Made by a program: the position numbers and the translations under genes. Under the pieces are notes generated by a model. That model was given only the letters and a program-made list of their open reading frames with translations, made no database searches and had not been told where the DNA came from. A DNA stretch of 40,233 nucleotides from a phage, in sequence record PZ445540.1. One strand, given 5' to 3'. Shown here piece after piece: positions 3,487 to 40,233 of the stretch (position 1 is its first letter; each line of letters opens with the position of its first letter).

Positions 3487-4644
3487 ATGTCTGAACTCGC
3501 TCTCATTCAAAAAGCAATCGAAGAATCCCAGCAGAAAATGACCCAGCTGTTCGATGCGCAGAAAGCTGAAATCGAAAGCACGGGCCAGGTTTCCAAACAG
3601 CTGCAGTCCGACCTGGCAAAAGTACAGGAAGAACTGTCCAAATCCGGTACCCGCCTCTTCGATCTGGAACAAAAACTGGCTTCCGGTGCTGAAAATCCGG
3701 GTGAGAAGAAATCCTTCTCTGAACGTGCCGCTGAAGAGCTCATCAAGTCATGGGACGGCAAACAGGGCACCTTCGACGCGAAGACGTTTAACAAGTCTCT
3801 CGGCAGTGACGCTGATTCTGCTGGCTCACTGATCCAGCCGATGCAGATCCCTGGCATCATCATGCCGGGCCTGCGCCGTCTGACTATTCGTGACCTGCTG
3901 GCTCAGGGCCGAATTTCCAGCAACGCTCTCGAATACGTGCGTGAAGAGGTGTTTACCAATAACGCCGACGTAGTGGCAGAGAAGGCGCTTAAGCCAGAGT
4001 CAGATATCACCTTCAGCAAACAGACCGCGAACGTAAAGACCATCGCGCACTGGGTGCAGGCATCACGTCAGGTGATGGACGATGCGCCAATGCTGCAGTC
4101 CTACGTTAACAACCGCCTCATGTACGGTCTGGCACTGAAGGAAGAAGGCCAGCTGCTGAACGGCGACGGCACCGGGGATAACCTGGAAGGTCTGAACAAA
4201 GTGGCAACCGCCTACGACACCTCGCTGAATGCAACCGGCGACACCCGCGCCGACATTATCGCTCACGCCATTTATCAGGTGACAGAGTCTGAGTTTAGCG
4301 CTTCCGGTATCGTCCTGAACCCGCGCGACTGGCACAACATTGCGCTGCTGAAAGACAACGAAGGCCGCTATATCTTCGGTGGTCCTCAGGCGTTTACCAG
4401 CAACATCATGTGGGGCCTGCCGGTGGTACCGACCAAGGCACAGGCAGCGGGTACCTTCACTGTGGGCGGTTTCGACATGGCATCTCAGGTCTGGGATCGC
4501 ATGGATGCCACCGTAGAAGTCAGCCGCGAAGATCGCGACAACTTCGTGAAAAACATGCTGACCATCCTGTGTGAAGAACGCCTTGCGCTGGCGCACTATC
4601 GCCCGACGGCAATCATCAAGGGCACTTTCTCTTCTGGCTCATGA
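3487..4644 (+). CDS. major capsid protein (HK97 fold) with N-terminal delta/scaffold domain
   Basis: 385 aa; coiled-coil-rich N-terminal ~100 aa (delta domain) followed by a capsid-like body; strong RBS; intrinsic terminator-like hairpin immediately downstream. Confidence 0.85.
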   Translation: MSELALIQKAIEESQQKMTQLFDAQKAEIESTGQVSKQLQSDLAKVQEELSKSGTRLFDLEQKLASGAENPGEKKSFSERAAEELIKSWDGKQGTFDAKTFNKSLGSDADSAGSLIQPMQIPGIIMPGLRRLTIRDLLAQGRISSNALEYVREEVFTNNADVVAEKALKPESDITFSKQTANVKTIAHWVQASRQVMDDAPMLQSYVNNRLMYGLALKEEGQLLNGDGTGDNLEGLNKVATAYDTSLNATGDTRADIIAHAIYQVTESEFSASGIVLNPRDWHNIALLKDNEGRYIFGGPQAFTSNIMWGLPVVPTKAQAAGTFTVGGFDMASQVWDRMDATVEVSREDRDNFVKNMLTILCEERLALAHYRPTAIIKGTFSSGS

Positions 4645-4650
4645 TGGAGG

Positions 4651-4675
4651 AGGGCGGGGTAACCCGCCCTTTTAA
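4651..4675 (+). terminator. hairpin + T-run after the capsid gene (terminator/attenuator)
   Basis: agggcggggtaacccgccct followed by TTTTA; GC stem of 6-7 bp. Confidence 0.5.
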
Positions 4676-4678
4676 CGT

Positions 4679-5005
4679 ATGGCGATAGATGTTTTGGATG
4701 TAATTAGCCTCCCCCTTTTCAAACAGCAGATTGAGTTTGAGGAGGATGACAGGGACGAGCTGATCACGCTGTACGCACAGGCAGCCTTTGACTACTGCTA
4801 CCGGTGGTGTGATGAACCGGCATGGAAAGCGGCAACTGACATTCCTGCAGCAGTGAAGGGCGCCGTACTGCTGGTGTTTGCGGACATGTTCGAGCACAGG
4901 ACCGCGCAGAGTGAAGTACAGCTTTATGAGAACGCCGCCGCAGAACGGATGATGTTCATCCATCGCAACTGGCGCGGTAAATCTGAACCTGAGGAGGGCT
5001 CCTGA
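4679..5005 (+). CDS. head-tail connector protein (gp6-like)
   Basis: 108 aa; position right after the capsid gene; sequence character of Phage_connect-type adaptor. Confidence 0.6.
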   Translation: MAIDVLDVISLPLFKQQIEFEEDDRDELITLYAQAAFDYCYRWCDEPAWKAATDIPAAVKGAVLLVFADMFEHRTAQSEVQLYENAAAERMMFIHRNWRGKSEPEEGS

Positions 5006-5343
5006 TGGAACCTGGACGATTCAGGCACCGGGTAAAAATTCTCACCTTCACGACTTCGCGCGATCCATCTGGTCAGCCGGTTGAATCGTGGACTAGTGGC
5101 AACACGGTCCCGGCTGAGGTAAAGGGGATCAGCGGCAGAGAGCAGCTTTCAGGCGGCGCGGAAACGGCGCAGGCAACCATTCGCGTCTGGATGCGCTTCA
5201 GGTCAGAGCTGAACGCCTCTTCTCGTCTGGAAGTGCTCAGCGGCCCGTATAAAGGTCAGGTGCTAAATATCATCGGTCCTCCTGTAGCAAATGCGACCGC
5301 CACTCGCCTGGAAATTCTTTGCAAAACGGGAGCTGAAAAATGA
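5005..5343 (+). CDS. head closure / head-tail adaptor protein
   Basis: 112 aa; overlapping start with upstream gene (ATGA); position and size typical. Confidence 0.6.
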   Translation: MEPGRFRHRVKILTFTTSRDPSGQPVESWTSGNTVPAEVKGISGREQLSGGAETAQATIRVWMRFRSELNASSRLEVLSGPYKGQVLNIIGPPVANATATRLEILCKTGAEK

Positions 5344-5789
5344 TTGAGACGGGCCTCGATTTTTCCGGGCTGAATGACATCGCAAAGGATCTGGAGGCGC
5401 TTAGCCGCGCTGAAAACAACAAGGTTCTGCGTGATGCCACGCGCGCCGGAGCCGAAGTGCTTAAGCAAGAAGTGATCGCCCGCGCTCCCGTGCGTACCGG
5501 GAAACTGAAAAAAAACGTGGTGGTGGTGACCCAAAAAAGCCGCCGCCACGGGGACATTTCTTCCGGTGTCCACATTCGTGGTGTCAACCCGCGTACCGGA
5601 AACAGCGATAACACGATGAAGGCGAATAACCCGAGAAATGCCTTTTACTGGCGGTTCGTCGAAATGGGTACGGTGAATATGCCGCCACATCCGTTTGTGC
5701 GACCCGCTTACGATACGCGCGAGGAAGAGGCCGCCAGCGTCGCCATTGCTAGGATGAATCAGGCTATTGATGAGGTGTTGAGCAAGTGA
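5340..5789 (+). CDS. HK97 gp10-like tail component
   Basis: 149 aa; 'RAPVRTGKLKKN' and 'FYWRFVEMGT...PHPFVRPA' motifs typical of the HK97 gp10 family; overlapping start. Confidence 0.7.
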   Translation: MIETGLDFSGLNDIAKDLEALSRAENNKVLRDATRAGAEVLKQEVIARAPVRTGKLKKNVVVVTQKSRRHGDISSGVHIRGVNPRTGNSDNTMKANNPRNAFYWRFVEMGTVNMPPHPFVRPAYDTREEEAASVAIARMNQAIDEVLSK

Positions 5790-6133
5790 ATGAAGATGAT
5801 ATCTACGCTTTGCTTTCTCCCCTGGCAGAAGGGCGGGTATATCCCTACGTTGCGCCATTAGGTAGCGACGGAAAACCGTCTGTCTCGCCACCCTGGATTA
5901 TCTTTTCCATCGTCGATGATGTTTCCGCTGACGTGCTGTGTGGCCAGGCAGAGAGCAGGGTTTCCGTTCAGGTCGATGTGTATTCCACTTCGATCGCTGA
6001 ATCACGCTCCCTGAGAGATTTGGCGCTCGCTTCGCTTAAGCCGTTAAACCCTACAGAGGTGGTAAAAATCCCCGGGTACGAGCCAGATTATCGGCTCTAC
6101 CGTGCCACCCTGGATTTTAAAGTTACCCCCTGA
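5786..6133 (+). CDS. tail completion protein (gp11-like)
   Basis: 115 aa; position between gp10-like gene and the major tail protein gene. Confidence 0.5.
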   Translation: MNEDDIYALLSPLAEGRVYPYVAPLGSDGKPSVSPPWIIFSIVDDVSADVLCGQAESRVSVQVDVYSTSIAESRSLRDLALASLKPLNPTEVVKIPGYEPDYRLYRATLDFKVTP

Positions 6134-6153
6134 CAATTAATTCACCCAACGAA

Positions 6154-6180
6154 CCCGCCTGATGGCGGTTTTTCTTTTTC
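6154..6180 (+). terminator. hairpin + T-run upstream of the major tail gene
   Basis: cccgcctgatggcgg followed by TTTTTCTTTTT; lies in the 59-nt gap before the major tail protein RBS. Confidence 0.45.
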
Positions 6181-6192
6181 CAGGAGACAGCT

Positions 6193-6636
6193 ATGTCTGC
6201 ACTTTATGAAAAATCGCAGCTGACGAAGATCCTTATTTCCTCTCTGCCAGCCACCAAAGAAACGATGGATTCCGCAACCTTCCTCGATCTGAGTTGCACC
6301 ATCAAAGAAATTCAGTTCACCGGTGGTCAGAAGCAGGATATCGACGTAACGACGCTTTGCTCGACCGAGCAGGAGAACATTAACGGTCTGCCTTCTCCGT
6401 CAGAAATCTCTCTGTCCGGAAACTTCTACAAGAATCCGGCGCAGGACGCCTTGCGTGATGCGTATGACAACGATACTACCTACGCGTTCCAGGTTATCTT
6501 CCCGTCCGGCAAGGGCTTTAAGTTCCTGGCTGAAATCCGCCAGCACACCTGGTCTTCCGGTACCAACGGCGTAGTGGCGGCAACGTTCTCCCTGCGCCTG
6601 AAAGGTAAGCCTGAAAGCATCGAGTCTGGCTCCTGA
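6193..6636 (+). CDS. major tail protein
   Basis: 147 aa; strong RBS (AGGAG); position before the tail assembly chaperones and tape measure. Confidence 0.65.
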   Translation: MSALYEKSQLTKILISSLPATKETMDSATFLDLSCTIKEIQFTGGQKQDIDVTTLCSTEQENINGLPSPSEISLSGNFYKNPAQDALRDAYDNDTTYAFQVIFPSGKGFKFLAEIRQHTWSSGTNGVVAATFSLRLKGKPESIESGS

Positions 6637-6644
6637 GAGGTCGC

Positions 6645-7028
6645 ATGAAGAATATTAAAAATCTCGCCCTGGCTAAGATGTCGGGTTTTCGTCATAAGAC
6701 GGTCGCCGTTCCTGAGTGGGAAGGCGTCAAAGTGGTTCTCCGTGAGCCGTCAGGTGAAGCCTGGCTGCGCTGGCAGGAGGTGGTGAAATGGGGTGCCGAC
6801 GATGAAAATGTGTCGGTATCGGAAAAGGCGCACCGTAATCTTTGCGCTGACGTGGTGCTCTTCATTGACGTCCTGTGCGACACCGATAAGCAACCGGTAT
6901 TCAGCGTAGACGAAGAAGAGCAGGTGCGTGAAATCTACGGCCCCGTCCATTCACGCCTGCTCAAACAGGCTCTTGACCTGATCAACAATGCGGACGAAGC
7001 GCGGGAAAAGTCTCAACCCCCGGCGTAA
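6645..7028 (+). CDS. tail assembly chaperone (G-like)
   Basis: 127 aa acidic protein directly upstream of a -1 frame ORF and the tape measure region. Confidence 0.55.
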   Translation: MKNIKNLALAKMSGFRHKTVAVPEWEGVKVVLREPSGEAWLRWQEVVKWGADDENVSVSEKAHRNLCADVVLFIDVLCDTDKQPVFSVDEEEQVREIYGPVHSRLLKQALDLINNADEAREKSQPPA

Positions 7029-7036
7029 AGTTTCTG

Positions 7037-7315
7037 ATGTCGCTTGCGCTCCGGATGGGGCGCACGCTCTCAGAGCTTCGGCAGAATATGACGGCAAGCG
7101 AGCTTCTGATGTGGATTGAGTACGACAGGCAAAGTCCGGTTGGCGATATTCGTGGTGACATTCAGGCAGCTCAGCTCGTCTCTGCCATCTACGGCTCGCA
7201 GGGGGCAAAAGTACCGCTGGACGATGCGATCCTGCGCTGGGGTGGTGATGAGCAATCAGAACCGAAGGACCAGTTTGCAGGACTTGAGGCTGCACTTACA
7301 GCTGCAACTCAGTGA
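7037..7315 (+). CDS. tail assembly chaperone partner (T-like)
   Basis: 92 aa ORF in the -1 frame relative to the upstream chaperone, with its own ATG; G/T-like arrangement. Confidence 0.4.
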   Translation: MSLALRMGRTLSELRQNMTASELLMWIEYDRQSPVGDIRGDIQAAQLVSAIYGSQGAKVPLDDAILRWGGDEQSEPKDQFAGLEAALTAATQ

Positions 7316-7368
7316 CAAATGAACTACAAAATAATAGGATTATTTTTTTTAATGATTTGGTGAAGGCA

Positions 7369-7662
7369 ATGAAAAAACTAGTCTTATTTGTATTATTTTT
7401 TGGTTTCAGTTGTGTTTCAAATGCAACTCAAACACTGGCTCCATTAGAACCAAATGATTTGCAAAGCTATACGTCTACGATTTGCTCTGATCATGCAAAT
7501 CCTGAATTGTGTAAAAAGGCTTTTTTTAAATTCATGGGCTATATAAAAACAAACGATGATTACTACTATTTCTGTCAAAAGCAAAAAGAGGCAGGGATGA
7601 CGATTAATAAAGATTCATGCAATAAATCGGAAGCTCTGAGAGAATTTTTAGACAAGCCATGA
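7369..7662 (+). CDS. small secreted Cys-containing protein (moron)
   Basis: Internal ATG at 7369 gives MKKLVLFVLFFGFSCVSNA signal peptide; mature ~78 aa with 4 Cys; ~32% GC versus ~52% for the phage; own terminator downstream. Confidence 0.5.
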   Translation: MKKLVLFVLFFGFSCVSNATQTLAPLEPNDLQSYTSTICSDHANPELCKKAFFKFMGYIKTNDDYYYFCQKQKEAGMTINKDSCNKSEALREFLDKP

Positions 7663-13038: not shown

Positions 13039-13560
13039 ATGAGGAATGTTTTAATTTTAGCGTTTGTCACATTTTTGTTTGGCTGCACTGAAAGAGCGCG
13101 ACCAGCAGATGAAATCGATCATGAAAGTGGACTGGTTAAAATATTCAGCACTAAAAATTTTAATACTGCGCAAGATAGGGCTGATATTCTTTGCGGCAAA
13201 AAATCATATTATGTGAAAGCTCTTCATGAAAGTAATTTGGTACTTTTAAGAAACAACCTCTCCGACGTATATTTGTTCGATTACATTCCTTTTCAGTGTG
13301 AGCTGAAAGCTGCCGCAAACGCGGGAAACTCTGAAGCTAAAGCGCTCTATGACAAAAAACTTACTGATGCATATCGTAATCTTGAAGAGTCTAAAAGAAA
13401 TCAGTACGAAGCGCATAAAGCTTATGCCAAAAAGCATGGGATTGATTCATATAGCACAGTAAACCCTGATGGCAGCATAGAGGCTCACACCATAGATTCC
13501 AGCGGTAACGCTTGTCATAGCACTGTCGGTATATATGGAGGGGAAACAGTCTGTGACTAA
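13039..13560 (+). CDS. lipoprotein of unknown function (moron)
   Basis: 173 aa; N-terminal signal with lipobox LFGC; ~38% GC; inserted between the K-like and I-like tail genes. Confidence 0.5.
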   Translation: MRNVLILAFVTFLFGCTERARPADEIDHESGLVKIFSTKNFNTAQDRADILCGKKSYYVKALHESNLVLLRNNLSDVYLFDYIPFQCELKAAANAGNSEAKALYDKKLTDAYRNLEESKRNQYEAHKAYAKKHGIDSYSTVNPDGSIEAHTIDSSGNACHSTVGIYGGETVCD

Positions 13561-14493: not shown

Positions 14494-17400
14494 ATGGCTA
14501 CAGAAAAAGTGTTAAAGGGCCGCAAGGGCGGCAGCTCAAGTTCCCGAACCCCAACCGAACAGCCTGATGATCTGCAATCTGTAGCGAAGGCAAAAATCCT
14601 CGTTGCGCTTGGGGAAGGGGAGTTTGCAGGGCAGCTAACCGGCAAAGATATCTACCTGGACGGAACGGCACTTGAGAACGCTGACGGCTCCCAAAACTTC
14701 AGCGGCGTAACGTGGGAATTTCGCGCAGGAACGCAGGCGCAAAAATATATTCAGGGCATACCCGGTACCGAAAACGAAATCAGCGTTGGTACCGAAGTTT
14801 CCAGCACTACAGCCTGGACGCGCACATTCACCAATACGCAGCTTTCAGCGGTTCGCTTGCGTCTGAAATGGCCGTCACTCTTTAAACAGGAAAACGACGG
14901 TGATCTGGTCGGCTACTCAATAAACTATGCTATCGACCTGCAGACTGACGGCGGTATCTGGCATACGGTACTCAATACCAGTGTGACCGGGAAAACGACA
15001 TCAGGTTACGAGCGCAGCCACCGAATTGATTTACCGCAGGCTGGCAGCACCTGGACAATCAGACTGCGTAAGATTACAGCCGATGCCAATAGTGCGAAGA
15101 TCGGCGACACGATGACGCTGCAGAGCTTCACTGAGGTGATCGACGCCAAACTGCGCTACCCGAACACAGCATTGCTGTATATTGAGTTTGATTCAAGCCA
15201 GTTCAACGGCTCTATCCCGCAGATTTCATGCGAGCCGCGCGGGCGCGTTATTCGCGTTCCTGATAACTACGATCCTGAAACCAGAACATATTTCGGCACA
15301 TGGACCGGCGCCTTTAAATGGGCATGGACCGATAACCCGGCGTGGATTTTTTACGACCTGGTGGTTTCCGACCGCTTCGGTCTTGGTCACCGGCTAAGCG
15401 CGGCAAATATCGATAAATGGACGCTGTATCAGGTGGCTCAGTATTGTGATCAGAGAGTTCCTGACGGAAAGGGTGGCAGCGGTACCGAACCACGGTACAC
15501 CTGCAACGTGTACATTCAGGACCGGAACGACGCCTACACAGTCCTGCGTGATTTTGCTGCTATCTTCCGGGGCATGACCTACTGGGGCGGCAATCAAATT
15601 GTTGCTCTGGCTGACATGCCGCGTGATGTTGATTACAGCTATACGCGCGCAAACGTTATTGACGGTCGATTCACCTATTCGAGCAGTACCACGAAAAGCC
15701 GATACACTACCGCGCTGGTATCATGGTCCGATCCAGATAATGCCTACGCCGACGCTATGGAGCCGGTATTTGAGCAGTCGCTGGTTGCGCGGTACGGTTT
15801 TAACCAACTGGAAATGACCGCCATCGGCTGCACCAGGCAGTCAGAGGCAAACCGAAAGGGGCGCTGGGGTATTCTCACCAACAACAAGGATCGCGTTGTT
15901 TCGTTTGATGTGGGCCTGGACGGAAACATACCACAGCCAGGCTACATCATCGCCGTGGCTGACGAACTGCTGTCCGGAAAGGTAATGGGTGGCCGCATCA
16001 GCGAAGTTAACGGTCGCGTTATCAGGCTTGATCGTGTTCCTGATGCGACTGCAGGTGATCGCCTTATTCTGAACCTTCCATCTGGAGCTTCGCAGAGCCG
16101 CACCATTCAGGCGGTAAACGGTGAGTCGGTAACTGTCACAACCACGTACAGTGAGACGCCACAGCCCGAAGCAGTTTGGCTGGTGGAATCAAACGAGCTC
16201 TACGCGCAACAGTACCGCGTTGTCAGTGTGAGCGATAACAATAATGGTACCTTCTCAATCACTGCGGCATTTCATGACCCGGACAAATACGCCAGAATTG
16301 ATACCGGCGCGATTATCGACCAGCGACCGATTAGTGTTATTCCGCCGGGAAACCAGTCCGCACCAGCCAACATCGTAATCAGCTCGTTTTCTGTGGTTCA
16401 GCAGAATATCAGCGTCGAAACCATGCGCGTAAGCTGGGACCAGGCAAAAAATGCCATCGCCTATGAGGCACAGTGGCGCCGTAACGACGGGAACTGGGTG
16501 AACATGCCGCGCAGCTCCACCACGTCATTTGACGTCCCGGGGATTTATGCCGGGCGCTACCTGGTGCGCGTGCGCGCAATTAATGCCGCTGAAATTTCCT
16601 CAGGATGGGGATATTCAGAAGAGAAGACACTGACCGGCAAAGTAGGTAATCCGCCTAAGCCAGTAGGATTCACCGCCACGGGCATTAACTGGGGGATTCG
16701 TCTTAACTGGGGTTTCCCGGCAAACACCGGCGATACGCTAAAAACGGAAATTCAGTACACTGCCAACAGTGACTTTTCAGATCCACTCTTGCTCTCAGAC
16801 GTGCCTTATCCATCTGCGGAATACACCCAGCTCGGCCTTAAAGCAGGGCAGGAATTCTGGTACCGCGCGCAGCTGGTCGACAGAACGGGTAACGAGTCCG
16901 GGTATACCGACTGGATCAGGGGGATGTCTAACGATAACGCCGATGATTATCTTGGAGATATCGCAGACGATTTCCTAACCTCTGCCGACGGGGAACGCCT
17001 CACCGGTGACATCGATACCAACATTGAGGGAATTCTACAGAACGCCCTGGCGAACCACGGAACTGTTGAGCACCAGTGGGCACAATACGGAGAAGTGCGT
17101 GCCGATATTCTGGTGGTTAAAACGACGATTGCTGAAGTTGATAATGCAATGGCCGAACTTTCGACGCAGGTGCAGGCGCAGATTGAGGATGTTACCGCTT
17201 CCCTGGAAGACAAGCTTACAGCCGTCGTTGATGCCTCTGGCGCTTCGGCTATCTACACCCTCAAAACAGGCGTGAGGATAAACGGCATCATGTATAACGC
17301 CGGGATGTCGATTGCCGTTCTGGCGCAGGCAGGGCAGCCGATTGTTACCCGAGTAGGTTTCAACGCTAACCAGTTCGTGCTGATGAGTGGCAGTGGCGAT

Positions 17401-17670
17401 ACCCAGTATTCGCCGTTCGCTGTGGTTAATGGACAGGTCTTTATCAGCTCAGCGTTTATTCAGGATGGCACGATCACCAATGCCAAAATCGGCAACTTCA
17501 TCCAGTCCAATAACTACGTTGCTGGGTCTATCGGATGGAGGCTGGATAAAAGTGGCACACTGGAAATGAATGGTGCCACATCAGGGCAGGGCAGATTAAC
17601 GCTGAATAATACCCGCATGGATGTTTATGATCAGAATGGAACGCTTCGCGTAAGAATAGGACAATTATGA
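14494..17670 (+). CDS. host specificity protein / central tail fibre (lambda J-like)
   Basis: 1058 aa; size, position after the I-like gene and fibronectin-III-like central region. Confidence 0.88.
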   Translation: MATEKVLKGRKGGSSSSRTPTEQPDDLQSVAKAKILVALGEGEFAGQLTGKDIYLDGTALENADGSQNFSGVTWEFRAGTQAQKYIQGIPGTENEISVGTEVSSTTAWTRTFTNTQLSAVRLRLKWPSLFKQENDGDLVGYSINYAIDLQTDGGIWHTVLNTSVTGKTTSGYERSHRIDLPQAGSTWTIRLRKITADANSAKIGDTMTLQSFTEVIDAKLRYPNTALLYIEFDSSQFNGSIPQISCEPRGRVIRVPDNYDPETRTYFGTWTGAFKWAWTDNPAWIFYDLVVSDRFGLGHRLSAANIDKWTLYQVAQYCDQRVPDGKGGSGTEPRYTCNVYIQDRNDAYTVLRDFAAIFRGMTYWGGNQIVALADMPRDVDYSYTRANVIDGRFTYSSSTTKSRYTTALVSWSDPDNAYADAMEPVFEQSLVARYGFNQLEMTAIGCTRQSEANRKGRWGILTNNKDRVVSFDVGLDGNIPQPGYIIAVADELLSGKVMGGRISEVNGRVIRLDRVPDATAGDRLILNLPSGASQSRTIQAVNGESVTVTTTYSETPQPEAVWLVESNELYAQQYRVVSVSDNNNGTFSITAAFHDPDKYARIDTGAIIDQRPISVIPPGNQSAPANIVISSFSVVQQNISVETMRVSWDQAKNAIAYEAQWRRNDGNWVNMPRSSTTSFDVPGIYAGRYLVRVRAINAAEISSGWGYSEEKTLTGKVGNPPKPVGFTATGINWGIRLNWGFPANTGDTLKTEIQYTANSDFSDPLLLSDVPYPSAEYTQLGLKAGQEFWYRAQLVDRTGNESGYTDWIRGMSNDNADDYLGDIADDFLTSADGERLTGDIDTNIEGILQNALANHGTVEHQWAQYGEVRADILVVKTTIAEVDNAMAELSTQVQAQIEDVTASLEDKLTAVVDASGASAIYTLKTGVRINGIMYNAGMSIAVLAQAGQPIVTRVGFNANQFVLMSGSGDTQYSPFAVVNGQVFISSAFIQDGTITNAKIGNFIQSNNYVAGSIGWRLDKSGTLEMNGATSGQGRLTLNNTRMDVYDQNGTLRVRIGQL

Positions 17671-17933
17671 TGATAAAATTTTTGGCTATTACAACCTGTT
17701 TTATCCTGACTGGATGCGCTTATAAAGAATCAACGGTTGCTGCTGACTGCACAGCAGTTTATACGCTGAAAACATTTGTGGTCGGAGGTGATTATCCTGT
17801 CAAGATTAATGCGGTCAGGCATGACAGATTTGGGCGAGTTTATTATCGTGCAGCACCAGGGCAATCGTATGTGAATTTTTATGGTCGCTGGCAGCCAGCG
17901 GCTTCATTTAAGCATGGAGACTGCCCACGATGA
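17670..17933 (+). CDS. small lipoprotein (Cor/Llp-like superinfection-exclusion candidate)
   Basis: 87 aa; signal peptide with lipobox LTGC; start overlaps the J stop; position immediately 3' of J. Confidence 0.45.
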   Translation: MIKFLAITTCFILTGCAYKESTVAADCTAVYTLKTFVVGGDYPVKINAVRHDRFGRVYYRAAPGQSYVNFYGRWQPAASFKHGDCPR

Positions 17934-18202
17934 GCTATGGATACCAAATATTTGATGCTACTGGGGTGGATGTAACTGGCCTGATCACCCCCGTATTTTT
18001 CCTTGACAAGTTGACATCGCCATCAGGGACCAAAACATACCCTGCCCCACCGGCAGGTAAAACGCTTAAGGCATTAGTGATAAATTCCATGCTCTGGAAT
18101 GGTTCTACAGGTAATTCGTCAGTTAGCGTCAGCGGAAATACTGTGACGTGGAGCGGTCTTGCAGGGAATTCTACATTTTTTGCCATGGTTTACTGGGGGT
18201 AG
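17930..18202 (+). CDS. hypothetical protein
   Basis: 90 aa; RBS GGAGA; begins MSYGYQIF, the same motif as the next gene. Confidence 0.4.
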   Translation: MSYGYQIFDATGVDVTGLITPVFFLDKLTSPSGTKTYPAPPAGKTLKALVINSMLWNGSTGNSSVSVSGNTVTWSGLAGNSTFFAMVYWG

Positions 18203-18204
18203 TG

Positions 18205-18822
18205 ATGTCATATGGTATGCAGATTTTGCGGCCGGACGGAAATTTATGGCTAAGTCCTGAGGTAACACCGATGAACCTTATTGATAAAGGTGTCATGGCT
18301 GGAACTAAGGGCGAGGTATTTCAGACGCGCATCCCATCAGGAATACCGGCTATCTTCTTTGTAAGAATGCAGAATGAATTGTACGCATCATTCAGCCAGA
18401 TTGACCAAAACGGATACAACTCACTCAGGATCGATGCTAATGCAGGTGTGGGGAGTATCCATATTTATGCTTTTGCTGCGATGGTAGTTGCTCCTCCAGC
18501 ATTTGGGATCGCGATGTATGACGCTTCAGGGAAAATGATTTATCACGGAAATATGAGGCCACTTGAGTGCTATCAGGTTGCAAGTCAGGGAACAAAAACC
18601 CGTATTGATGTTGGATATCTTGCCGCCGTGTGTCCTGTGCAGATGTCAGTATATTCAGTTGTTAACTCATCGGTTGGTGGATGGAATATATTCGTATCTT
18701 CATCATCAGCAAGTGGAAGCATTGTTTCCACGCCAAGCCGACAAGTTGCAAACACATCTGGTCCGGCAGGGTTCATATGGAGCAATTCAATGTTGGTCAT
18801 TAATGCATCAAAATATGATTAA
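18205..18822 (+). CDS. hypothetical protein (shares N-terminal motif with upstream gene)
   Basis: Internal ATG at 18205 with RBS GGGGG; ~205 aa; begins MSYGMQIL. Confidence 0.45.
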   Translation: MSYGMQILRPDGNLWLSPEVTPMNLIDKGVMAGTKGEVFQTRIPSGIPAIFFVRMQNELYASFSQIDQNGYNSLRIDANAGVGSIHIYAFAAMVVAPPAFGIAMYDASGKMIYHGNMRPLECYQVASQGTKTRIDVGYLAAVCPVQMSVYSVVNSSVGGWNIFVSSSSASGSIVSTPSRQVANTSGPAGFIWSNSMLVINASKYD

Positions 18823-18831
18823 GGAGTCATA

Positions 18832-20001
18832 ATGTCTGCAGGAACTATCACCCTGACAAATGGGTCCGCTGTTGTTGCCGGTACCGGAACCTCATTCGCA
18901 ACCGAGCTCGCCGCTGGTGATTTCATTGTTTCGACTGTGGGCGGTGTGCCCTACACGTTGCCGGTGAAAACAGTCGACAGTAATACCCAACTGACGCTAG
19001 TCAGCAACTTTACCGGGCCAACACAATCCGGCGCAGCCTGGTCTGCCGTTCCTCGCATTGCACTCAATATGGTTACGGCTGCGCTGGTGGCGCAAAGTGC
19101 CGAAGCACTACGAGGCCTGAACTACGACAAACGGAACTGGCAGCAGGTCTTCAGTGGAGCGGGGGATATCACTGTCACAATGCCGGATGGAACACAGTAT
19201 TCCGGTCCATCATGGCCTTCAATTGTCTCCTCTGTCAGCGGAAAGCTATCCTCTGACGCAACTACTCTAAGAAAGCTATTCACCGCTGCATTTGTGAATC
19301 CAGGGGATAACTGGCCGTATCCAGGAGTTACTACATATAATAACAATTTGTGGGGAAGCCCCAGCCAGTGGGGGACTGTACTTACGCTCTCTAATCAGGA
19401 TGTATCAGGTAGTAGTTACGATGGGCGCTGGTATAGTTACCTTCAGATAGATACCACTGGCAACTTTGCCGTTGCAGCGAACATTAACAATAACTTCTTC
19501 GGTGTCTACAGGGTCTGGACTACTAAAAACACAACTGTTGATGGCTCAGGCTTCATCAAGCGCGCCTCGCCGATTGCAAGACTGGTCGCAGACACTTCAA
19601 TTATGAGCGGCGAGTTTACTGACTCGTTTAAAATCTCCGGCAGCGGTGCGGTTAATGAAGAGGCGGAAGGTGTTGATATCGAAAAGCTGGGTGATGGTAG
19701 GTATCGGATTTCCGGTTCTGACGGTCTCGCACAGGATGGGTGGCAGATCGAAGTGCCGAAAGATATTAACGGCAATCGACTTTGCTTTGTTGAGGTCACG
19801 GAGGGTCTTGAGGGTATTCTTTTAAAAGTATTCAAGCCAAAACTTGACCTTGAAACTGGAGGGATCATTGCCGGTGAGTCTTTTGACATTCCAGAGGGGC
19901 GCTGGATTGATGTGAGGCTGCAAATGCCAGCAAGCTCAGCATACAATGTCGTTCAGGGAAAAATCGCAGGGCAACTTGAATCTCAGCAAATGGCCGGATA
20001 A
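18832..20001 (+). CDS. tail fibre protein
   Basis: 389 aa; strong RBS AAGGAG; Gly/Ser/Thr-rich N-terminus typical of fibre proteins; position distal to J. Confidence 0.6.
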   Translation: MSAGTITLTNGSAVVAGTGTSFATELAAGDFIVSTVGGVPYTLPVKTVDSNTQLTLVSNFTGPTQSGAAWSAVPRIALNMVTAALVAQSAEALRGLNYDKRNWQQVFSGAGDITVTMPDGTQYSGPSWPSIVSSVSGKLSSDATTLRKLFTAAFVNPGDNWPYPGVTTYNNNLWGSPSQWGTVLTLSNQDVSGSSYDGRWYSYLQIDTTGNFAVAANINNNFFGVYRVWTTKNTTVDGSGFIKRASPIARLVADTSIMSGEFTDSFKISGSGAVNEEAEGVDIEKLGDGRYRISGSDGLAQDGWQIEVPKDINGNRLCFVEVTEGLEGILLKVFKPKLDLETGGIIAGESFDIPEGRWIDVRLQMPASSAYNVVQGKIAGQLESQQMAG

Positions 20002-20007
20002 ACCAGC

Positions 20008-20036
20008 ATAAAAAAGCCCTGCGACCGGGCAATGAC
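20008..20036 (-). terminator. minus-strand intrinsic terminator
   Basis: Reverse complement reads gcccggtcgcagggc followed by TTTTTTAT. Confidence 0.45.
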
Positions 20037-20265
20037 TCAGCCGCGCCTCTCTGAGCAGGCTACGGGGTGGGTAATTTGAGATTAGTCACCCATAAACGAA
20101 GCCGCCAGATTAAAATTTCAGCGCCAACAGTGGCTTTACAAAACAGTGAGCCGTTTCGCCTTGATCAAATCTACCGATCGATATTACTGTTTATCCATGG
20201 GTCTTCCCTTGTTGTGGTGGCTGAAGGCATGATAATGGCGTATTAAATCGCCAGAGGTCACCACC

Positions 20266-20598
20266 ATGGACGAAAAGTCCCTCTATGCACATATCCTCAA
20301 CTTGTCAGCTCTGTGGCAGGTAAAGTCTCTTTCTCTCGATGAAAATACCGCTTCTGTTACCGTTACTGTCGGAATCGCTGAAAAATACTCAGTTGACCTG
20401 TCGTTAAAAGTGACGCAAGGAAGCGTCCTGCTTATCCGCCTGGCTGGCGAACTGCAGTTTGCAAAATTGATGGGTGAATCGTTTATCACAGAGGATGGTG
20501 AGGCGATAGAAGGCGAATCGTTGGAGGATGTGATCGTTGTAGGCAGGGTGACTTATTTTGTTAATCGGGCAGGGGAAGATGACTGCCCGATACTTTAG
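20266..20598 (+). CDS. hypothetical protein (b-region)
   Basis: 110 aa ORF with RBS AGAGG; no recognisable motifs. Confidence 0.4.
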   Translation: MDEKSLYAHILNLSALWQVKSLSLDENTASVTVTVGIAEKYSVDLSLKVTQGSVLLIRLAGELQFAKLMGESFITEDGEAIEGESLEDVIVVGRVTYFVNRAGEDDCPIL

Positions 20599-20926
20599 AA
20601 ATGATGTGTACATATTGGTGTACTTTATTTCTTTTTAAAGAATAAAAAACTACATAAAAAACATAAAGTTGTTCTGTTGTGTAACTATATCCACTGCAGT
20701 ATTTGAGGGCGGACGTACTGAGCTTAAAGACGGAGCGGTAGTTGAGAAAACCTAATCGGTCGATGTTACCGGCGCTTCAGCAGCGCTTCACCATGAGGCT
20801 ATTCTGGCTTTAATGGATCAAATTGAAGATTTAAAGAAACAGGTAGAGGCATTACAGCCAGGAAGTTGATGAAACCGCCGCTCATCGTAAGCAATGATGG
20901 GCGGCGACAGATTGCCCGAACAATCT

Positions 20927-21193
20927 CTACAGGCCAACCTGGCGAACAGTCGGGAACTCTGAAACCAGCCACATATCGGACTCTTCAAACATTTCCTCCA
21001 GCATGCGGTTCAGCTTTTCCCGATCGCTTTTGCTGGCATCGCTATTCAGGCCGTTCGCCTGCATCGGCTTTACCTTCACTTCGGCATCAGGAAAAATTTT
21101 GTGCACCCGCTTTGTTAGTTCAGCCAGGATGATCTCTCTGGCCCCTTCGAGCCCCTCAACATTACGCTTGTCATAAACCAGTTCTACGAACAT
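20927..21193 (-). CDS. dinI: DinI-like SOS-inducible protein
   Basis: Internal ATG at 21193 with GGAG RBS gives 88 aa; 'ELTKRVHKIFPDAEVKV...DMWLVSE' aligns with the E. coli DinI pattern; LexA box in the promoter. Confidence 0.75.
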   Translation of the reverse strand: MFVELVYDKRNVEGLEGAREIILAELTKRVHKIFPDAEVKVKPMQANGLNSDASKSDREKLNRMLEEMFEESDMWLVSEFPTVRQVGL

Positions 21194-21208
21194 AAATGCT
21201 CCGCTAAT

Positions 21209-21228
21209 CACTGTTTGAATATACAGTA
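21209..21228 (-). promoter_or_regulatory. LexA (SOS) box upstream of the DinI-like gene
   Basis: caCTGTttgaatatACAGta matches CTGT-N8-ACAG with an AT-rich centre, 16 nt upstream of the start codon. Confidence 0.6.
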
Positions 21229-21256
21229 TTTTTGCTTTGGCGGTTTTGTCTGTCAA

Positions 21257-21547
21257 GGCATGAACAACTTGTTTTTATATTTTGGGGAACGTACTGCTGG
21301 CGTGTTTGTTATCGATTAGCCCTACAGGGCTGATGTGGTCTGGCGCTGACTAAAATTATGCGTGGGGCATGGATGGGGCAAAAGTGGTCTGTGAAGTTCG
21401 TTAAAGTTCGTTAATCAAGCTTTATCTCGATCTCTCTCATCCCTTGTTTAAAGCGCTCCTGGACGATCTTTATCGATTTTAAAAACTATGAGTTCATATT
21501 ATACAAATGTAGCAATAGTGCTGCTAACCATTTGAATATAAAGTTTT
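21257..21547. other. candidate attP region
   Basis: Non-coding stretch directly 3' of int; tandem 10-bp repeat agttcgttaa x2 (21395-21414) and a GATGGGGCAAAG motif shared with the int 3' end. Confidence 0.35.
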
Positions 21548-22840
21548 CTACTGCGCTACTAACATGCCTTGGGGCAGCGATGGGGCAAAGCGTGAAAGCG
21601 CCTGGTTAAGCAGAGAAACCTGTTCGGCACTCTTCTCTGACATCCACTTTCCATACACTTTGTAAACCATCTGAGCATCTGTATGCCCCATCTGAGTTGC
21701 TATAAAGTTTGGGTTTGCCCCAGCTGATAATGACCAGCACGCATAAGTGTGTCGTGACTGGTAGGCGTTGCGGTACCGTATTCCGGCGCGCTTGATTATC
21801 GGGGCCCAAATTTTATTAATCGAATTAACCGCGTAGTGATATCCTCTACGAGGCCCATGCTTGACGCATTGAGGACTGAAAACGAAAGTGCAGGGGTGTA
21901 TGACTGACTGGCCATATTCCCGCAATTTCACTTCAATCTCATACTGCCGGCCAAGGCGCGTCAGCTGGGCCTGATTCCTCAGGGCATCAATAGCTGGTTG
22001 AATGAGATAAATCACCCTGTCAGTGCCTGCGTCGGTTTTTGGCAGGGTGAACTCATTCGTCTGGGTAAGGTTGCGTTTCACTGTGATGGTTCCGGCATGC
22101 AGATCGATATCTTCCCACGCCAGACCGCACAACTCCCCATGCCTCATTCCAGTATAGACTGCCAGCGACCAGAGATTTCTCATCTGCTGGTGGCCGCAAG
22201 CCTGGATAAACCGGATAAACTCTTCTGTCGTGAGTGGGTCTGGTTCACCTTTCGCTTTTTTGAGACGGTTAATTCCGCTAAACGGGTTTTCCTTTGCGTA
22301 GCCGTTATCAGCTGCAAACTGGAAGATCTCGGCCATCAGCATCATGTAATTATTCACGGTCGAAGACTTCCTGCCTTGAACCTGTGTCCGGTGATCCTTC
22401 TTCATTACATGAAAACCCGTCAGCAACTCCTTTCTCACGTACAGCAAATCCTCAGTGGTCACCGCAGAAACCATTTTGTTTTCGCCGATGCGCGGAAGCA
22501 TGTTTTTTATGATGGATTCGTAACGACTCATAGTGTTAGAGCTGATTTCCATCCTCTTCAGCTCAGACCACTTTTCGGTAAGCTCCAGCACAGTAATTTC
22601 CTTTCTATCCTGACCGAACCGGGCAAGGTTCGGTGAGTTTGGGAATTTTTCCGCATAGTCAAAATTTCCCATCCTTATCGCAAAACAAACTGAAGAACGC
22701 AGCTCACCAGCTATCTTGCGATTTTTTGCAGTGTCAGGGACACCGAGGTTTTCCCTGACACGTTTACCTTTATACAGAAACCAGATGCGGAGCGAACCGC
22801 CGTGGTTTTCGACGCCTGTCGGGTATGATGCATTAGCCAT
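21548..22840 (-). CDS. int: tyrosine integrase
   Basis: Start set at ATG 22840 (RBS AGGAGGG), 430 aa; C-terminal catalytic region with 'HTYACW' motif typical of tyrosine recombinases. Confidence 0.9.
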   Translation of the reverse strand: MANASYPTGVENHGGSLRIWFLYKGKRVRENLGVPDTAKNRKIAGELRSSVCFAIRMGNFDYAEKFPNSPNLARFGQDRKEITVLELTEKWSELKRMEISSNTMSRYESIIKNMLPRIGENKMVSAVTTEDLLYVRKELLTGFHVMKKDHRTQVQGRKSSTVNNYMMLMAEIFQFAADNGYAKENPFSGINRLKKAKGEPDPLTTEEFIRFIQACGHQQMRNLWSLAVYTGMRHGELCGLAWEDIDLHAGTITVKRNLTQTNEFTLPKTDAGTDRVIYLIQPAIDALRNQAQLTRLGRQYEIEVKLREYGQSVIHPCTFVFSPQCVKHGPRRGYHYAVNSINKIWAPIIKRAGIRYRNAYQSRHTYACWSLSAGANPNFIATQMGHTDAQMVYKVYGKWMSEKSAEQVSLLNQALSRFAPSLPQGMLVAQ

Positions 22841-32187: not shown

Positions 32188-33003
32188 ATGGAACTTGAAG
32201 CATCACTAAAACACTTTAGCCCTCAGGGTATGCACATCAGCGACGACGTGAAAGGAACCTCTCCGGACCGCCTTACAGGAACAGATGTAATGGCGGCGAT
32301 TGGCACCACCAGCAGCCGTGCGCGCTTCGGCCTGGCGGCGTTCTTCGGTAAAGCGGGAATCAGCAAAACCGATGAACAGCTCGCAGTTCAGGCGCTGGCG
32401 CGATATGCGATGGATGTCGCACCGAAGAATGTTCGCAAAGCAGCTGGTGGCCAGTTCGGATGGTGTATGCAGATGCTGGCGCAATTTGCCTTTGCTGATT
32501 ATTCCCGTTCGGCGGCTACCAGCGTGACGTGTCACAGCTGCAGCGGTACCGGACGAACAACCCGCGAGCAGATTACCCGCAAGGTTTCGTACCCATGGGG
32601 TAAAGCTCCATACTGGGCCTGCCGCTCTCGTGCTGTTCGACCGTCTGACTGGGAGCAGTGGACGGAGGTAACAGAGGTTGTACCGGCGGTCTGTGATGCT
32701 TGCGATGGCATGGGAACGATCAGCGCCCGTTGTCGTTGCGGCGGTAAAGGCGAGGTTCTAGACCGCAAAGCGACTAAAGACCGCGGCGCACCGGTTTTCA
32801 AAACGTGTGAACGTTGCTCTGGTAATGGCTTCTCTGCTATCTCCTCGGCGACGGTACACCGTGCCATTCTGAAGCGTCTCCCGGACCTTCATCAGTCCTC
32901 ATGGTCACGCAACTGGAAACCCTTCTATGAAATGCTGGTGGACACTTTGCGTCAGGGGGAGCGTCATGCTGCTTTAGAATTTGAGAAGGCAACAACTTAT
33001 TGA
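32188..33003 (+). CDS. Cys-rich protein with four DnaJ-type CxxCxGxG repeats (possible late-gene antiterminator)
   Basis: 271 aa; CSGTGR, CDGMGT, CGGKGE, CSGNGF repeats; sits where lambdoid Q genes sit, upstream of the late leader and lysis genes. Confidence 0.45.
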   Translation: MELEASLKHFSPQGMHISDDVKGTSPDRLTGTDVMAAIGTTSSRARFGLAAFFGKAGISKTDEQLAVQALARYAMDVAPKNVRKAAGGQFGWCMQMLAQFAFADYSRSAATSVTCHSCSGTGRTTREQITRKVSYPWGKAPYWACRSRAVRPSDWEQWTEVTEVVPAVCDACDGMGTISARCRCGGKGEVLDRKATKDRGAPVFKTCERCSGNGFSAISSATVHRAILKRLPDLHQSSWSRNWKPFYEMLVDTLRQGERHAALEFEKATTY

Positions 33004-36473: not shown

Positions 36474-37931
36474 ATGCAGGTCACTATTGATGGTGTCCCA
36501 TACGCTCCCGCCAGCGTCGTTTCATCACGGATCGGCATTGCCATTTCGACGCATCAGCGTGCAGACGTTTTAAAACGAGCACTCGAACAGCACATGAAGC
36601 ATCTTCCCGCCGGCGCGCTGGTGGTGGTTGTCGATGATGGTTCAAAACCTGCAGCGGTAGTTCCCCACGGCGTGCAGCTGCTTCGCCATGAAACATCACT
36701 CGGCATTGTTGCTTCGAAGAACACCAGTCTGTCAGCCTTGATGGATGCCGGGTGCGAGCATCTTTTTCTGTGGGATGATGATGCCTGGCCGATTGCTGAT
36801 AACTGGCACCTGCCTTACATCGAATCACCCGAGCCACACCTGGCTTACCAGTTTCTCGATCTTGCTGGCACGAACAAGCTGAATGACCTTTCGGTGCTTT
36901 ACCGTGACGATCAGCATGTGGCGTACACCGGGCAGCGCGGCGTGATGCTTTATTACCACCGCAGCGCCATCGAGAAGGTAGGCGGATTCGATCCGGTTTA
37001 TGGCCGGGGCATGTATGAGCACAGCGACCTCGCCTTGCGCATCCATAACGCAGGACTGACTACGTGGGCTTACGCTGATGTCCTCGGTTCAGAAAAGCTG
37101 ATTCATTCCCTTGATGAGCATGAAGCCGTAGAGCGTTCGGTACCGAAACCAGATCGACAGGCGCTGGTAGAACGTAACGTTAAAATCCATAACGAACGGC
37201 GCGATGCCGGGTTTACCGGTTCCGTGGATTATCGGCGGCAGCGCGACGTGGTTATCACTACTCTGCTGACCAGCCAGTCAGATCCGCAGCGCGGTACGAA
37301 AATGTCCGCCGCACCTGACATGCTGACCCGTTGGGCTTCCTCGCTTCGGAATTGTGGTCGTATCGCGCTGGTGGATGAACTGCAGACGGCACCGGCAGAC
37401 GTTGAGCTGTATCGCGTTCCTGACGTGAAGATGAATGTCTACTTCCGGCGATGGCTGCATATCTGGCAGCACCTGCGTGATCATCCTGAATACCGGTTCG
37501 TCTGGTGTACCGATGGTACAGATGTCGAAATGCTCCGCGCACCGTGGGAAGAAATGCAGCCCGGTACTGTTTACGTCGGTTCTGAACCGAAGACCTACGC
37601 CGACACCTGGGCAAAGCAGAATCATCCTGAGCGTATCTATCAGGAGTTCATCGAAGCGCACCGCAACGATGTGATGCTAAACGCTGGTCTGCTGGGTGGT
37701 ACCCGCGCTGATGTAATGGCGTTTGCCCACGGCATCATCCGTCTTTACTACCGGATCGAGAGTTATCGTTTCTGGAAGAAAGAACAGGCTGGCGCCGCGG
37801 TGGGGGATATGATCGCTTTTGGCATTGTTGCTAAGTCTTTTGGCGATCGCATTGTCACCGGACCGCGCATCCATACAGTGTTTAAGTCAGAAGGAATCGG
37901 TAAAGAGTACGCATGGTTCAAACATAAGTAA
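36474..37931 (+). CDS. glycosyltransferase (family 2-like GT-A N-terminal domain + unknown C-terminal domain)
   Basis: 485 aa; 'GIAISTHQR...LVVVVDDGS' nucleotide-sugar-binding motif and 'FLWDDDAWP' DxD-like motif; no TM segment. Confidence 0.7.
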   Translation: MQVTIDGVPYAPASVVSSRIGIAISTHQRADVLKRALEQHMKHLPAGALVVVVDDGSKPAAVVPHGVQLLRHETSLGIVASKNTSLSALMDAGCEHLFLWDDDAWPIADNWHLPYIESPEPHLAYQFLDLAGTNKLNDLSVLYRDDQHVAYTGQRGVMLYYHRSAIEKVGGFDPVYGRGMYEHSDLALRIHNAGLTTWAYADVLGSEKLIHSLDEHEAVERSVPKPDRQALVERNVKIHNERRDAGFTGSVDYRRQRDVVITTLLTSQSDPQRGTKMSAAPDMLTRWASSLRNCGRIALVDELQTAPADVELYRVPDVKMNVYFRRWLHIWQHLRDHPEYRFVWCTDGTDVEMLRAPWEEMQPGTVYVGSEPKTYADTWAKQNHPERIYQEFIEAHRNDVMLNAGLLGGTRADVMAFAHGIIRLYYRIESYRFWKKEQAGAAVGDMIAFGIVAKSFGDRIVTGPRIHTVFKSEGIGKEYAWFKHK

Positions 37932-37944
37932 GAGAGGAAATTAT

Positions 37945-38095
37945 GGTAAGCAAAACACTAGTTAAGAGTAAAAGCGGCAACAAATCTAGTTGCCGCAGCC
38001 AAGAATTTTTCAGAGTGCCTACAGGTAAGATATTTATATCTTCTGCAAGTATTGAAAAATTAGTTTGTTTTTACGGAGTCAAGAATCTTCAGTAA
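37945..38095 (+). CDS. small ORF (50 aa) in AT-rich island
   Basis: Hand-translated MVSKTLVKSKSGNKSSCRSQEFFRVPTGKIFISSASIEKLVCFYGVKNLQ; RBS AGAGGAAA; 3' end overlaps the convergent minus-strand ORF. Confidence 0.2.
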
Positions 38096-38299
38096 AGCTT
38101 CTTTTGCATGAGTGTGAGCCTCAACCATCGACGGGTCACTAACAGAAGTTGATTTAATAAAGTTTGCAATAACTTCTTTGTTGTTTGAGCCAACAACAAA
38201 TGCGCTGAATGTCTGAGCAAGCAGTTCTGTCAGCGCGTAATTTTTGCGTAAAACGTCATCAATCCGTTCAAACTGTTCTGAAACGCTATATCCACTCAT
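38060..38299 (-). CDS. hypothetical protein (AT-rich island, opposite strand)
   Basis: 79 aa ORF on the minus strand inside an otherwise + strand late operon; low GC. Confidence 0.35.
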   Translation of the reverse strand: MSGYSVSEQFERIDDVLRKNYALTELLAQTFSAFVVGSNNKEVIANFIKSTSVSDPSMVEAHTHAKEALLKILDSVKTN

Positions 38300-38429
38300 T
38301 TCCTTTCCTTCGTCAGAGGTAATCAGCCATCACTCTGCACATGTGTGCGCCAGTGTCCCACCACTGACGGGCTGAGTGCTTACCTTAACCAGGGTTAAAG
38401 CGAAGTAACACCCTGATATTCAGACAGTA

Positions 38430-38452
38430 GCCGCCATCGTGCGGCTTTTTTA
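38430..38452 (+). terminator. intrinsic terminator immediately upstream of the second glycosyltransferase-like gene
   Basis: gccgccatcgtgcggc followed by TTTTTTATT; the RBS GGAG and a GTG start follow within 20 nt. Confidence 0.55.
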
Positions 38453-38466
38453 TTGGAGATTTGCTG

Positions 38467-40227: not shown

Positions 40228-40233
40228 AAGACT

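Follow-up and report, generated by a model that had tools for sequence, protein, structure and literature searches.

The phage genome of sequence record PZ445540.1, a stretch of 40,233 nucleotides that we call the window, encodes two glycosyltransferases (GT1 and GT2) together with a major capsid protein (MCP) and a major tail tube protein (TTP) that both terminate in Ser-Gly-Ser. We consider it likely, with a probability of roughly 70%, that these elements constitute a virion O-glycosylation system of the kind found in mycobacteriophages. GT2 is homologous to transferases of that system, and a terminal Gly-Ser, less often Thr-Ser, is found on the capsid or tail tube protein of almost every phage with a GT2 gene that we examined. 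Comparison of sequences indicates that the virions of this phage are probably glycosylated. The elements concerned are as follows.

3487-4644, plus strand: MCP, orthologue of HK97 gp5, 385 amino acids, ending ...KGTFSSGS (PF05065; PDB 3qpr/1ohg)
4633-4641, plus strand: Ser-Gly-Ser codons tct ggc tca at the C terminus of the MCP, the proposed acceptor or recognition tag, kept in relatives in which the preceding residues vary
6193-6636, plus strand: TTP, 147 amino acids, tube domain only, ending ...KGKPESIESGS
6625-6633, plus strand: Ser-Gly-Ser codons tct ggc tcc at the C terminus of the TTP
4679-5005, plus strand: head-tail adaptor Ad1, 108 amino acids, ending ...SEPEEGS, a possible substrate
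36474-37931, plus strand: GT1, a soluble two-domain glycosyltransferase of 485 amino acids (phrog_1579), with an N-terminal GT-A-like region containing D101-D102-D103 and an unclassified C-terminal domain
38461-39054, plus strand: GT2, a soluble glycosyltransferase of about 196 amino acids (phrog_854) with a predicted GT-A fold and E63-D64-D65, homologue of Che8 gp110 and Corndog gp38

The C-terminal ends of the virion proteins

The MCP is about 98% identical to HK97 gp5, with a Pfam match to Phage_capsid, and its gene ends ttc tct tct ggc tca tga, read as F-S-S-G-S-stop. The TTP matches the lambda-like tail tube families, and its gene ends gag tct ggc tcc tga, read as E-S-G-S-stop. These are the ends ...GTFSSGS and ...ESIESGS to which the initial annotation of this DNA drew attention, and the Ser-Gly-Ser codons agree with tctggctcNtga. 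Its further point, that this end is shared by none of the remaining head or tail proteins, holds for Ser-Gly-Ser, but not for terminal Gly-Ser, since Ad1 ends ...PEEGS. Counted over all stop-to-stop open reading frames (ORFs) of at least 50 amino acids in the six frames of the window, an SGS end occurs in 2/361, the MCP and TTP only, and a GS end in 3/361, Ad1 being the third. Given the amino acid composition of the window, a protein would end in GS with a probability of 0.0054, and the MCP and TTP would both end in SGS with a probability of about 1.5e-7. A chance origin of the shared ends is unlikely. The EEGS end of Ad1 is also present in HK97 and HK022, which lack the glycosyltransferases.

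The TTP of the window corresponds to the tube domain of HK97 gp12, cut a few residues past ...LKGKP where the HK97 protein runs on into an immunoglobulin (Ig)-like domain. Since the truncation falls at the entry to that domain, the tail would lie at the outer face of the tube, by analogy with the architecture of lambda gpV and HK97 gp12.

GT2 belongs to the family of Che8 gp110 and Corndog gp38

The initial annotation was right that there are two glycosyltransferase genes. Both are on the same strand, with the lysis genes on one side and HNH and terS on the other. GT2 is assigned to phrog_854 with an E value of 9e-72. By blastp its identity is 33% to Che8 gp110 (E 1e-22) and 31% to Corndog gp38 (E 4e-14), these two sharing 47% with each other, and by tblastn it is about 35% to the small glycosyltransferase that Cluster F genomes have at their right end. 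It has no Pfam or NCBIfam family, and neither enzyme has a PDB relative detectable by sequence. An AlphaFold2 model, calculated from an alignment deepened with homologues found by a Klebsiella jumbo-phage GT2 query, predicts a Rossmann-like GT-A fold in which an acidic DxD-type motif follows the fourth strand. Over its full length GT1 shares 43-46% identity (tblastn) with glycosyltransferases of hundreds of mycobacteriophages, and such genes adjoin gp110-like genes in Che9c, Sparky, Sbash, Renaud18 and others. Its N-terminus gives a Pfam match to a GT2 family below threshold and contains an invariant DDD at 101-103; comparison with hhalign gave no significant match of its N- or C-terminal domain to the GT2 family or to each other. 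No hydrophobic segment of transmembrane grade is present in GT1 or GT2 (maximum Kyte-Doolittle value over 19 residues 1.27 and 0.83, respectively).

Four articles that cite Freeman et al. 2023 attribute O-glycosylation of the mycobacteriophage virion to Che8 gp108-110 and Corndog gp36-38 (PMC12363180, PMC12619734, PMC11256854, PMC11600133). The first names Che8 gp110 and Corndog gp38 as the two transferases essential for capsid glycosylation (PMC12363180), and the second, summarizing Freeman 2023, puts the glycans at the C-terminal ends of the subunits of capsid and tail tube (PMC12619734). The glycan coat of mycobacteriophages is also reported to shield against antibodies. To our knowledge glycosylation of phage virions has so far been shown only in mycobacteriophages, and the abstract of the Freeman study reportedly judges it rare outside them.

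The position of the genes is also shared with those phages. In Che8 the glycosyltransferases stand directly before HNH at the genome end, beside terS, and the order GT-HNH-cos-terS is identical to that of the window, where the synteny is that of gp110-gp112: GT2 overlaps HNH by 16 nt, and terS and terL follow. Read from this gene order, on a single strand, the glycosyltransferase genes are embedded with the structural genes. Two neighbours define the context.

39039-39392, plus strand: HNH endonuclease, sharing 16 nt with the end of GT2 and tying the glycosyltransferase cassette to the terS/terL/head operon
32188-33003, plus strand: Q-like antiterminator (from the annotation of the near-identical phage SaltyDalty), upstream of the lysis genes and the cassette in a late operon context

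The actinophages with the enzyme carry comparable C-terminal tails. The MCP and TTP end ...NKTGS and ...YSDGS in Che8, ...PLVGS and ...IKGDS in Corndog, PGGGS and FGGGS in Sparky, DADES and SDGS in Ogopogo, and ETAS and GDGS in Che9c. Gordonia phage Phendrix has its glycosyltransferase cassette among the structural genes, and encodes four consecutive -GS proteins: the major head protein (...NSGS), gp75 (...GTGS), gp76 (...VTGS) and gp77 (...QAGS), an adaptor like Ad1. Its portal, protease and chaperone end otherwise. No similarity to HK97 gp5 was detectable in the tagged actinophage capsid proteins.

Thus the features of a Che8/Corndog-type system that can be sought in a sequence are all present in the window, namely a glycosyltransferase of the gp110/gp38 family, an adjacent glycosyltransferase, a structural-gene context and C-terminal tails on capsid and tail tube. 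Both systems have soluble phage glycosyltransferases next to HNH and terminase or inside the structural operon. They differ in that the host of the window phage is a Gram-negative enterobacterium and its virion of HK97 type, in the partner enzyme, which is the 485-residue GT1 (as in Che9c, Sparky and Wee, among others) rather than Che8 gp108/gp109, and in having no methyltransferase. The family membership of GT2, with the co-occurrence of tag and enzyme across unrelated protein families set out below, supports the view that the tails are modified, and that the Che8/Corndog kind of system extends to an HK97-like coliphage and to proteobacterial prophages.

Tag and enzyme in HK97-like phages

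Searches of IMG/VR with GT2 or with the MCP supplied 158 loci, which condense to 87 unique combinations of MCP and TTP. Where both glycosyltransferases are present the MCP ends in -GS in 74/74; the TTP does so in 64, ends otherwise in 2 and gave no match in 8. The residues before the GS are variable, being FSS, FAA, DES, AAA or TGA in the MCP and IES, IDP, IEP, YAS, HAS, FAS, VAS, YAA or IVA in the TTP, while the GS itself is fixed.

Relatives that lack the glycosyltransferases often differ. The MCP ends ...TFSAD in HK446, mEpX1 and one further locus (L151). The TTP is a 234-residue form with an Ig domain in HK97, HK75, HK544, HK446 and mEpX1, and in HK022, HK140 and mEpX2 a tail module of HK022 type contains no ORF ending in -GS. 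HK97 carries a KilA-N gene in the slot of the cassette. The TFSAD end in HK446, mEpX1 and L151 is due to three point substitutions in the last three codons; in HK446 and mEpX1 these turned SSGS-stop into SAD-stop within otherwise near-identical flanks (HK446, about 5120-5130). The short -GS form of the TTP goes with the cassette and the Ig form mostly without it, as if they were alternative decorations of the tube; both can coexist, as locus L212 has a TTP with an Ig domain and an -EQGS end.

The initial annotation had suggested that the tails are modified by the phage's own glycosyltransferases, and proposed comparing C-termini in relatives with and without them. In that comparison the tag goes with GT2 and is often missing where the glycosyltransferases are absent, and together with the family of GT2 this argues for the suggestion. 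Its acceptor motif has to be redrawn: the Gly-Ser end stands, and Ser-Gly-Ser as a unit does not, the conserved element being -Gly-Ser-COOH and sometimes -Thr-Ser.

Distribution of the tag across genera

How widely does the tag accompany the enzyme? One genome per species was scanned with a GT2 alignment, yielding 58 GT2-bearing prophage loci in more than 20 named genera. These include Enterobacter, Pantoea, Erwinia, Rahnella, Leminorella, Kosakonia, Sodalis and Pseudomonas, and further groups are Luteimonas, Rhizobiaceae, Martelella, Methylophilaceae and Dietzia. Ends in -GS occur in 78/1502 genes of these loci, 10 times expectation, and by PHROG and blastp labels nearly all are major head or major tail proteins, with one head decoration protein and one portal. 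Every MCP ends in serine (46/46: GS 37, TS 7, AS 1, NS 1), as does every TTP (38/38: GS 31, TS 6, SS 1), so that GS is found in 68/84 of the two together. In the remaining 1396 genes a -GS end occurs at the expected rate (6/1396, 0.43%) and a serine end in 5.4% (Fisher p about 1e-92 to 3e-94). The tagged head proteins belong to families 10, 247, 617, 133/4523, 771 and the HK97 type, and the tagged tail proteins to families 158, 584, 41, 853 and 290. Altogether the tag is seen on at least six capsid families and at least five tail-tube families in two bacterial phyla.

Individual phages illustrate the range. Salmonella phage FSL SP-016 has a protease-MCP fusion head protein ending GAGAGS and a TTP ending IDPGS, and in Cronobacter phage ENT47670 the ends are GEATS and SEPSS. 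The second capsid family (403 amino acids, phrog_10) ends in serine in 46/47 cases with the glycosyltransferase, and in -GA in 8/10 without it, where the TTP ends in -VA. In the HK97-type capsid family, 144 diverse representatives (38-75% identity) end mostly in Ala, Thr, Pro or Gly, with -GS in 3/144 and any terminal serine in 17/144. No -GS end was found in Halo, D29, lambda or Bxb1, all of which lack the glycosyltransferases.

On balance we favour the view that -Gly-Ser-COOH, with its -Thr-Ser variant, would be a portable label directing cytoplasmic O-glycosylation by phrog_854 of any virion surface protein that bears it, widespread in proteobacterial prophages of more than 20 genera and in actinophages.

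Several side observations concern this distribution. In ENT47670 the GT1-GT2 cassette lies directly after the major tail gene, within the tail operon (39577-42143, 4622-7334). In an Erwinia typographi prophage (14992-19353) the protease-MCP fusion, a head decoration protein and the TTP all end in -(E/Q)(S/Q)GS; thus the tag reaches decoration proteins. The minority -Thr-Ser tag is often borne by a phage's capsid protein and its tail tube protein alike (L185, L188, L193, L214, L278, L304 and others). The GT2 sequences from such loci tend to be mutual nearest neighbours, with one weakly discriminating alignment column (171), which is weakly suggestive of a GT2 subtype co-varying with -TS or -GS. 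Klebsiella and Serratia jumbo myophages of about 300 kb hold the same two-gene cassette (55% and 46% identity; FBKp24 20001-22070), and in FBKp24 no capsid or tail-tube gene was identifiable in the 20-kb context of the cassette. The protein collection contains 1879 GT2 homologues (E <= 0.001), and nearly all of the 120 closest (78-92% identity) come from Enterobacter, Citrobacter, Cronobacter, Leclercia and Pantoea, genera in which the cassette is common. In E. coli it is rare, a substantial match (25-76% of the query) being present in 4/5426 complete genomes, such as UMNK88 and ETEC1749; in five further ones the matches cover only 3-4% of the query.

Contrary observations and alternative explanations

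A number of observations weigh against glycosylation of the tails. The MCP ends ...FSSGS in HK97, HK022, HK75, HK544, HK140 and mEpX2, which lack any glycosyltransferase homologue. Conversely 4/126 combinations with the glycosyltransferases have an untagged TTP, as in two loci where it ends TLTVN (L142, L161). Brujita has glycosyltransferases like Corndog gp36/gp37 (45035-46629) and none of gp110 type, and its TTP ends ...EAGS and its capsid protein ...ETAS. The cassette is physically linked to the head and tail genes, and co-inheritance inflates the association of tag with enzyme. It is only by analogy with the P22 coat protein that the C-terminus of HK97 gp5 would lie on the capsid exterior. 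Among the papers searched, none reported glycosylated virions of coliphages, HK97-like or other Gram-negative phages.

The first and fourth of these points suggest that the SGS ends might be neutral or structural leftovers of HK97 head and tail modules with which the glycosyltransferases merely travel, and the EEGS end of Ad1 in phages without them could be read in the same way. A cassette 1-8 kb from the head and tail genes will yield some association through linkage alone. Yet the tag recurs on unrelated protein families, the capsid and tail families listed above and the dissimilar actinophage proteins, with varying residues before it, and linkage alone cannot explain this. The low base rate among diverse HK97-type capsids, the expected rate of -GS in the non-structural genes of the same loci and the loss of the tag in sister lineages without the enzyme also speak against leftovers, to which we give little credence. 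The initial annotation had held that SGS ends in relatives lacking any glycosyltransferase would count against modification, and the HK97 and HK022 capsids are formally such cases. We do not judge them decisive, because lambdoid modules reassort, other lineages without the enzyme show decay of the tag, and the cassette is present in about four-fifths of the nearest capsid relatives from IMG/VR. The retention of SGS by these two capsids is compatible with recent exchange of modules.

Alternatively the glycosyltransferases could act on lipopolysaccharide (LPS) or O-antigen in lysogenic conversion, on phage DNA or on a host protein, the tails serving some other purpose such as assembly or protease resistance. 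The usual assumption is that prophage glycosyltransferases modify surface polysaccharide (PMC11332146). Their site here, flanked by the lysis genes and HNH, is a variable 'moron' slot, occupied in HK97 by the KilA-N gene, and GT1 has weak matches to polysaccharide or small-molecule glycosyltransferases. The gtrABC genes of enterobacterial prophages are a precedent for glycosyltransferases borne in this way. However, their products are membrane proteins that act on LPS via bactoprenol, whereas GT1 and GT2 are soluble and unrelated, having no transmembrane-grade segment and no Gtr family among their Pfam or PHROG matches; ENT47670 bears a separate gtrABC O-antigen conversion set. The DNA glucosyltransferases of T4 have a GT-B fold, while that predicted for GT2 is GT-A. 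No ORF resembling a dCMP or dUMP hydroxymethylase is evident in the ORF lists of the window, which were not screened exhaustively. Moreover the cassette overlaps HNH/terS and is found in late or structural operons, not as a self-contained unit expressed in the lysogen, and the family member gp110 is, as cited above, reported to be essential for capsid glycosylation. Another target would leave the association with the tag unexplained, and we regard it as improbable.

Comparison with other glycosylation and decoration systems

The virus-encoded cytoplasmic glycosyltransferases of chlorovirus PBCV-1 that modify the capsid protein Vp54 (such as A64R) and those of the Mimivirus fibrils (R655/R699) are related to GT2 only at the level of the modelled fold, with 6-14% identity. 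They belong to eukaryotic giant viruses, with N-linked or otherwise different linkage at internal sites and no C-terminal tag. Another parallel is the pilin of Pseudomonas aeruginosa 1244, whose C-terminal serine is O-glycosylated by TfpO/PilO; here too the acceptor of the O-glycan is the C-terminal serine of the subunit of an abundant surface polymer. TfpO, which is mentioned in PMC13445384, differs in being a host-encoded periplasmic membrane oligosaccharyltransferase that uses a lipid-linked O-antigen unit; it has no homology to GT2 and is not a Leloir GT-A enzyme. Ig-like decoration domains occur on tail tube and capsid proteins such as HK97 gp12, lambda gpV and the MCP and TTP of Douge (PMC13033339). 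They too are an optional surface decoration, appended C-terminally to the tube (and capsid) subunit, but consist of a protein domain, not a glycan, and in the HK97-like phages are largely an alternative to the short -GS TTP.

A possible mechanism of virion glycosylation

What the sequences show is the ends of the proteins, the homology of the glycosyltransferases, the GT2 fold as modelled, the gene order and the statistical association of tag with enzyme. We infer the attachment of sugar, the acceptor residue, the order of the enzymes, the identity of the sugar and the function of the coat, and the scheme that follows is framed in that sense. Late transcription dependent on Q would generate GT1 and GT2 in the cytoplasm alongside the structural proteins. 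GT2 would bind the flexible tail and the free carboxylate of -Gly-Ser, and act as the initiating transferase by placing the first sugar on the terminal (or adjacent) serine; GT1 would most likely extend the glycan. The targets would be proteins in high copy exposed at the surface, the MCP (...FSSGS), the TTP (...IESGS) and possibly Ad1 (...EEGS). On the tube the tail would occupy the place of the outward-facing Ig-like domain of HK97 gp12. The outcome would be one glycan per capsid and tube subunit, coating head and tail.

It is conceivable, though we think it a poor prospect, that the terminal Gly-Ser is a recognition element only and that the sugar is elsewhere in the tail, on the serine at -3 or an upstream Ser/Thr, or that GT1 initiates. 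Many tails are rich in Ser/Thr (FSSGS, IESGS, SEPSS, GEATS), the articles on mycobacteriophage glycans give just the C terminus as the site, and a GT1 homologue, Ogopogo gp105, is annotated as resembling a polypeptide N-acetylgalactosaminyltransferase (ppGalNAc-transferase-like). Set against this, the terminal serine is the sole invariant hydroxyl, tails such as PLVGS, PGGGS and IVAGS have no other Ser/Thr nearby, and HK633 and locus L145 keep GT2 without GT1.

If the terminal dipeptide is such a portable label, most natural relatives of the HK97 capsid would be glycosylated, with HK97 itself a tagged exception that lacks the enzyme. If HK97-like enterobacterial phages do glycosylate their virions, the best-studied model of capsid and tail assembly would gain an overlooked post-translational layer, testable in E. 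coli with existing phages. A minimal C-terminal tag and a two-gene cassette would provide a simple tool for glyco-coating phages, virus-like particles and recombinant proteins in E. coli. Such coating is of interest for phage therapy, with possible effects on antibody evasion and on circulation time. Annotations of these genes as 'moron/host takeover', or their assumed role in O-antigen conversion, would need revising.

Organization of the genome and of the cassette

The window is the complete genome of an HK97-like temperate siphophage, a coliphage, rotated so that position 1 is the first base of the terL ATG; terS ends just before its end at 40233. The order of genes is terL, portal, protease, MCP, Ad1, Hc1, gp10-like, tail terminator, TTP, chaperones and tape measure, followed by lambda-like tip genes, integrase, early genes, Q, lysis genes, GT1, GT2, HNH and terS. 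Since the window begins at the terL ATG, the slot of the glycosyltransferases (36474-39054) is directly upstream of the head genes. Two small ORFs for which Pfam gave no significant family are inserted among the tail genes and have a hydrophobic N-terminus: one of 116 amino acids (7312-7662) that occupies the slot of the HK97 gp15 moron, after the chaperones and before the tape measure, and one of 173 amino acids (13039-13560) that contains a lipobox-like LFGC and is placed between the K-like gene and the I-like gene. From head to tail (3487-6636) the sequence matches Escherichia phage SaltyDalty at 100% identity and HK97 at about 92%. The SaltyDalty record is 36.9 kb, which the window exceeds by 3.3 kb, and its GT2 differs from that of the window by one residue.

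The start of GT2 is listed as a TTG (38461) that lies only 1 nt past GGAGA. A GTG at 38467 is better spaced (window 38455-38469) and is probably the true start, giving the length of the homologues (195-196 amino acids). A 183-residue ORF upstream of GT1 was considered as a third component of the cassette and rejected, being present in only 26/121 loci. The GT1 and GT2 genes overlap by 16 nt in 82 related loci. In the window they are separated by a 530-bp AT-rich insert (37932-38460) that contains a minus-strand ORF of 79 amino acids (38060-38299), for which no Pfam family was found, with a terminator-like hairpin on each side (37974-37996 and 38429-38446). The inserts that other relatives have at this junction are different and measure 180-1130 bp, which makes it an insertion hot spot.

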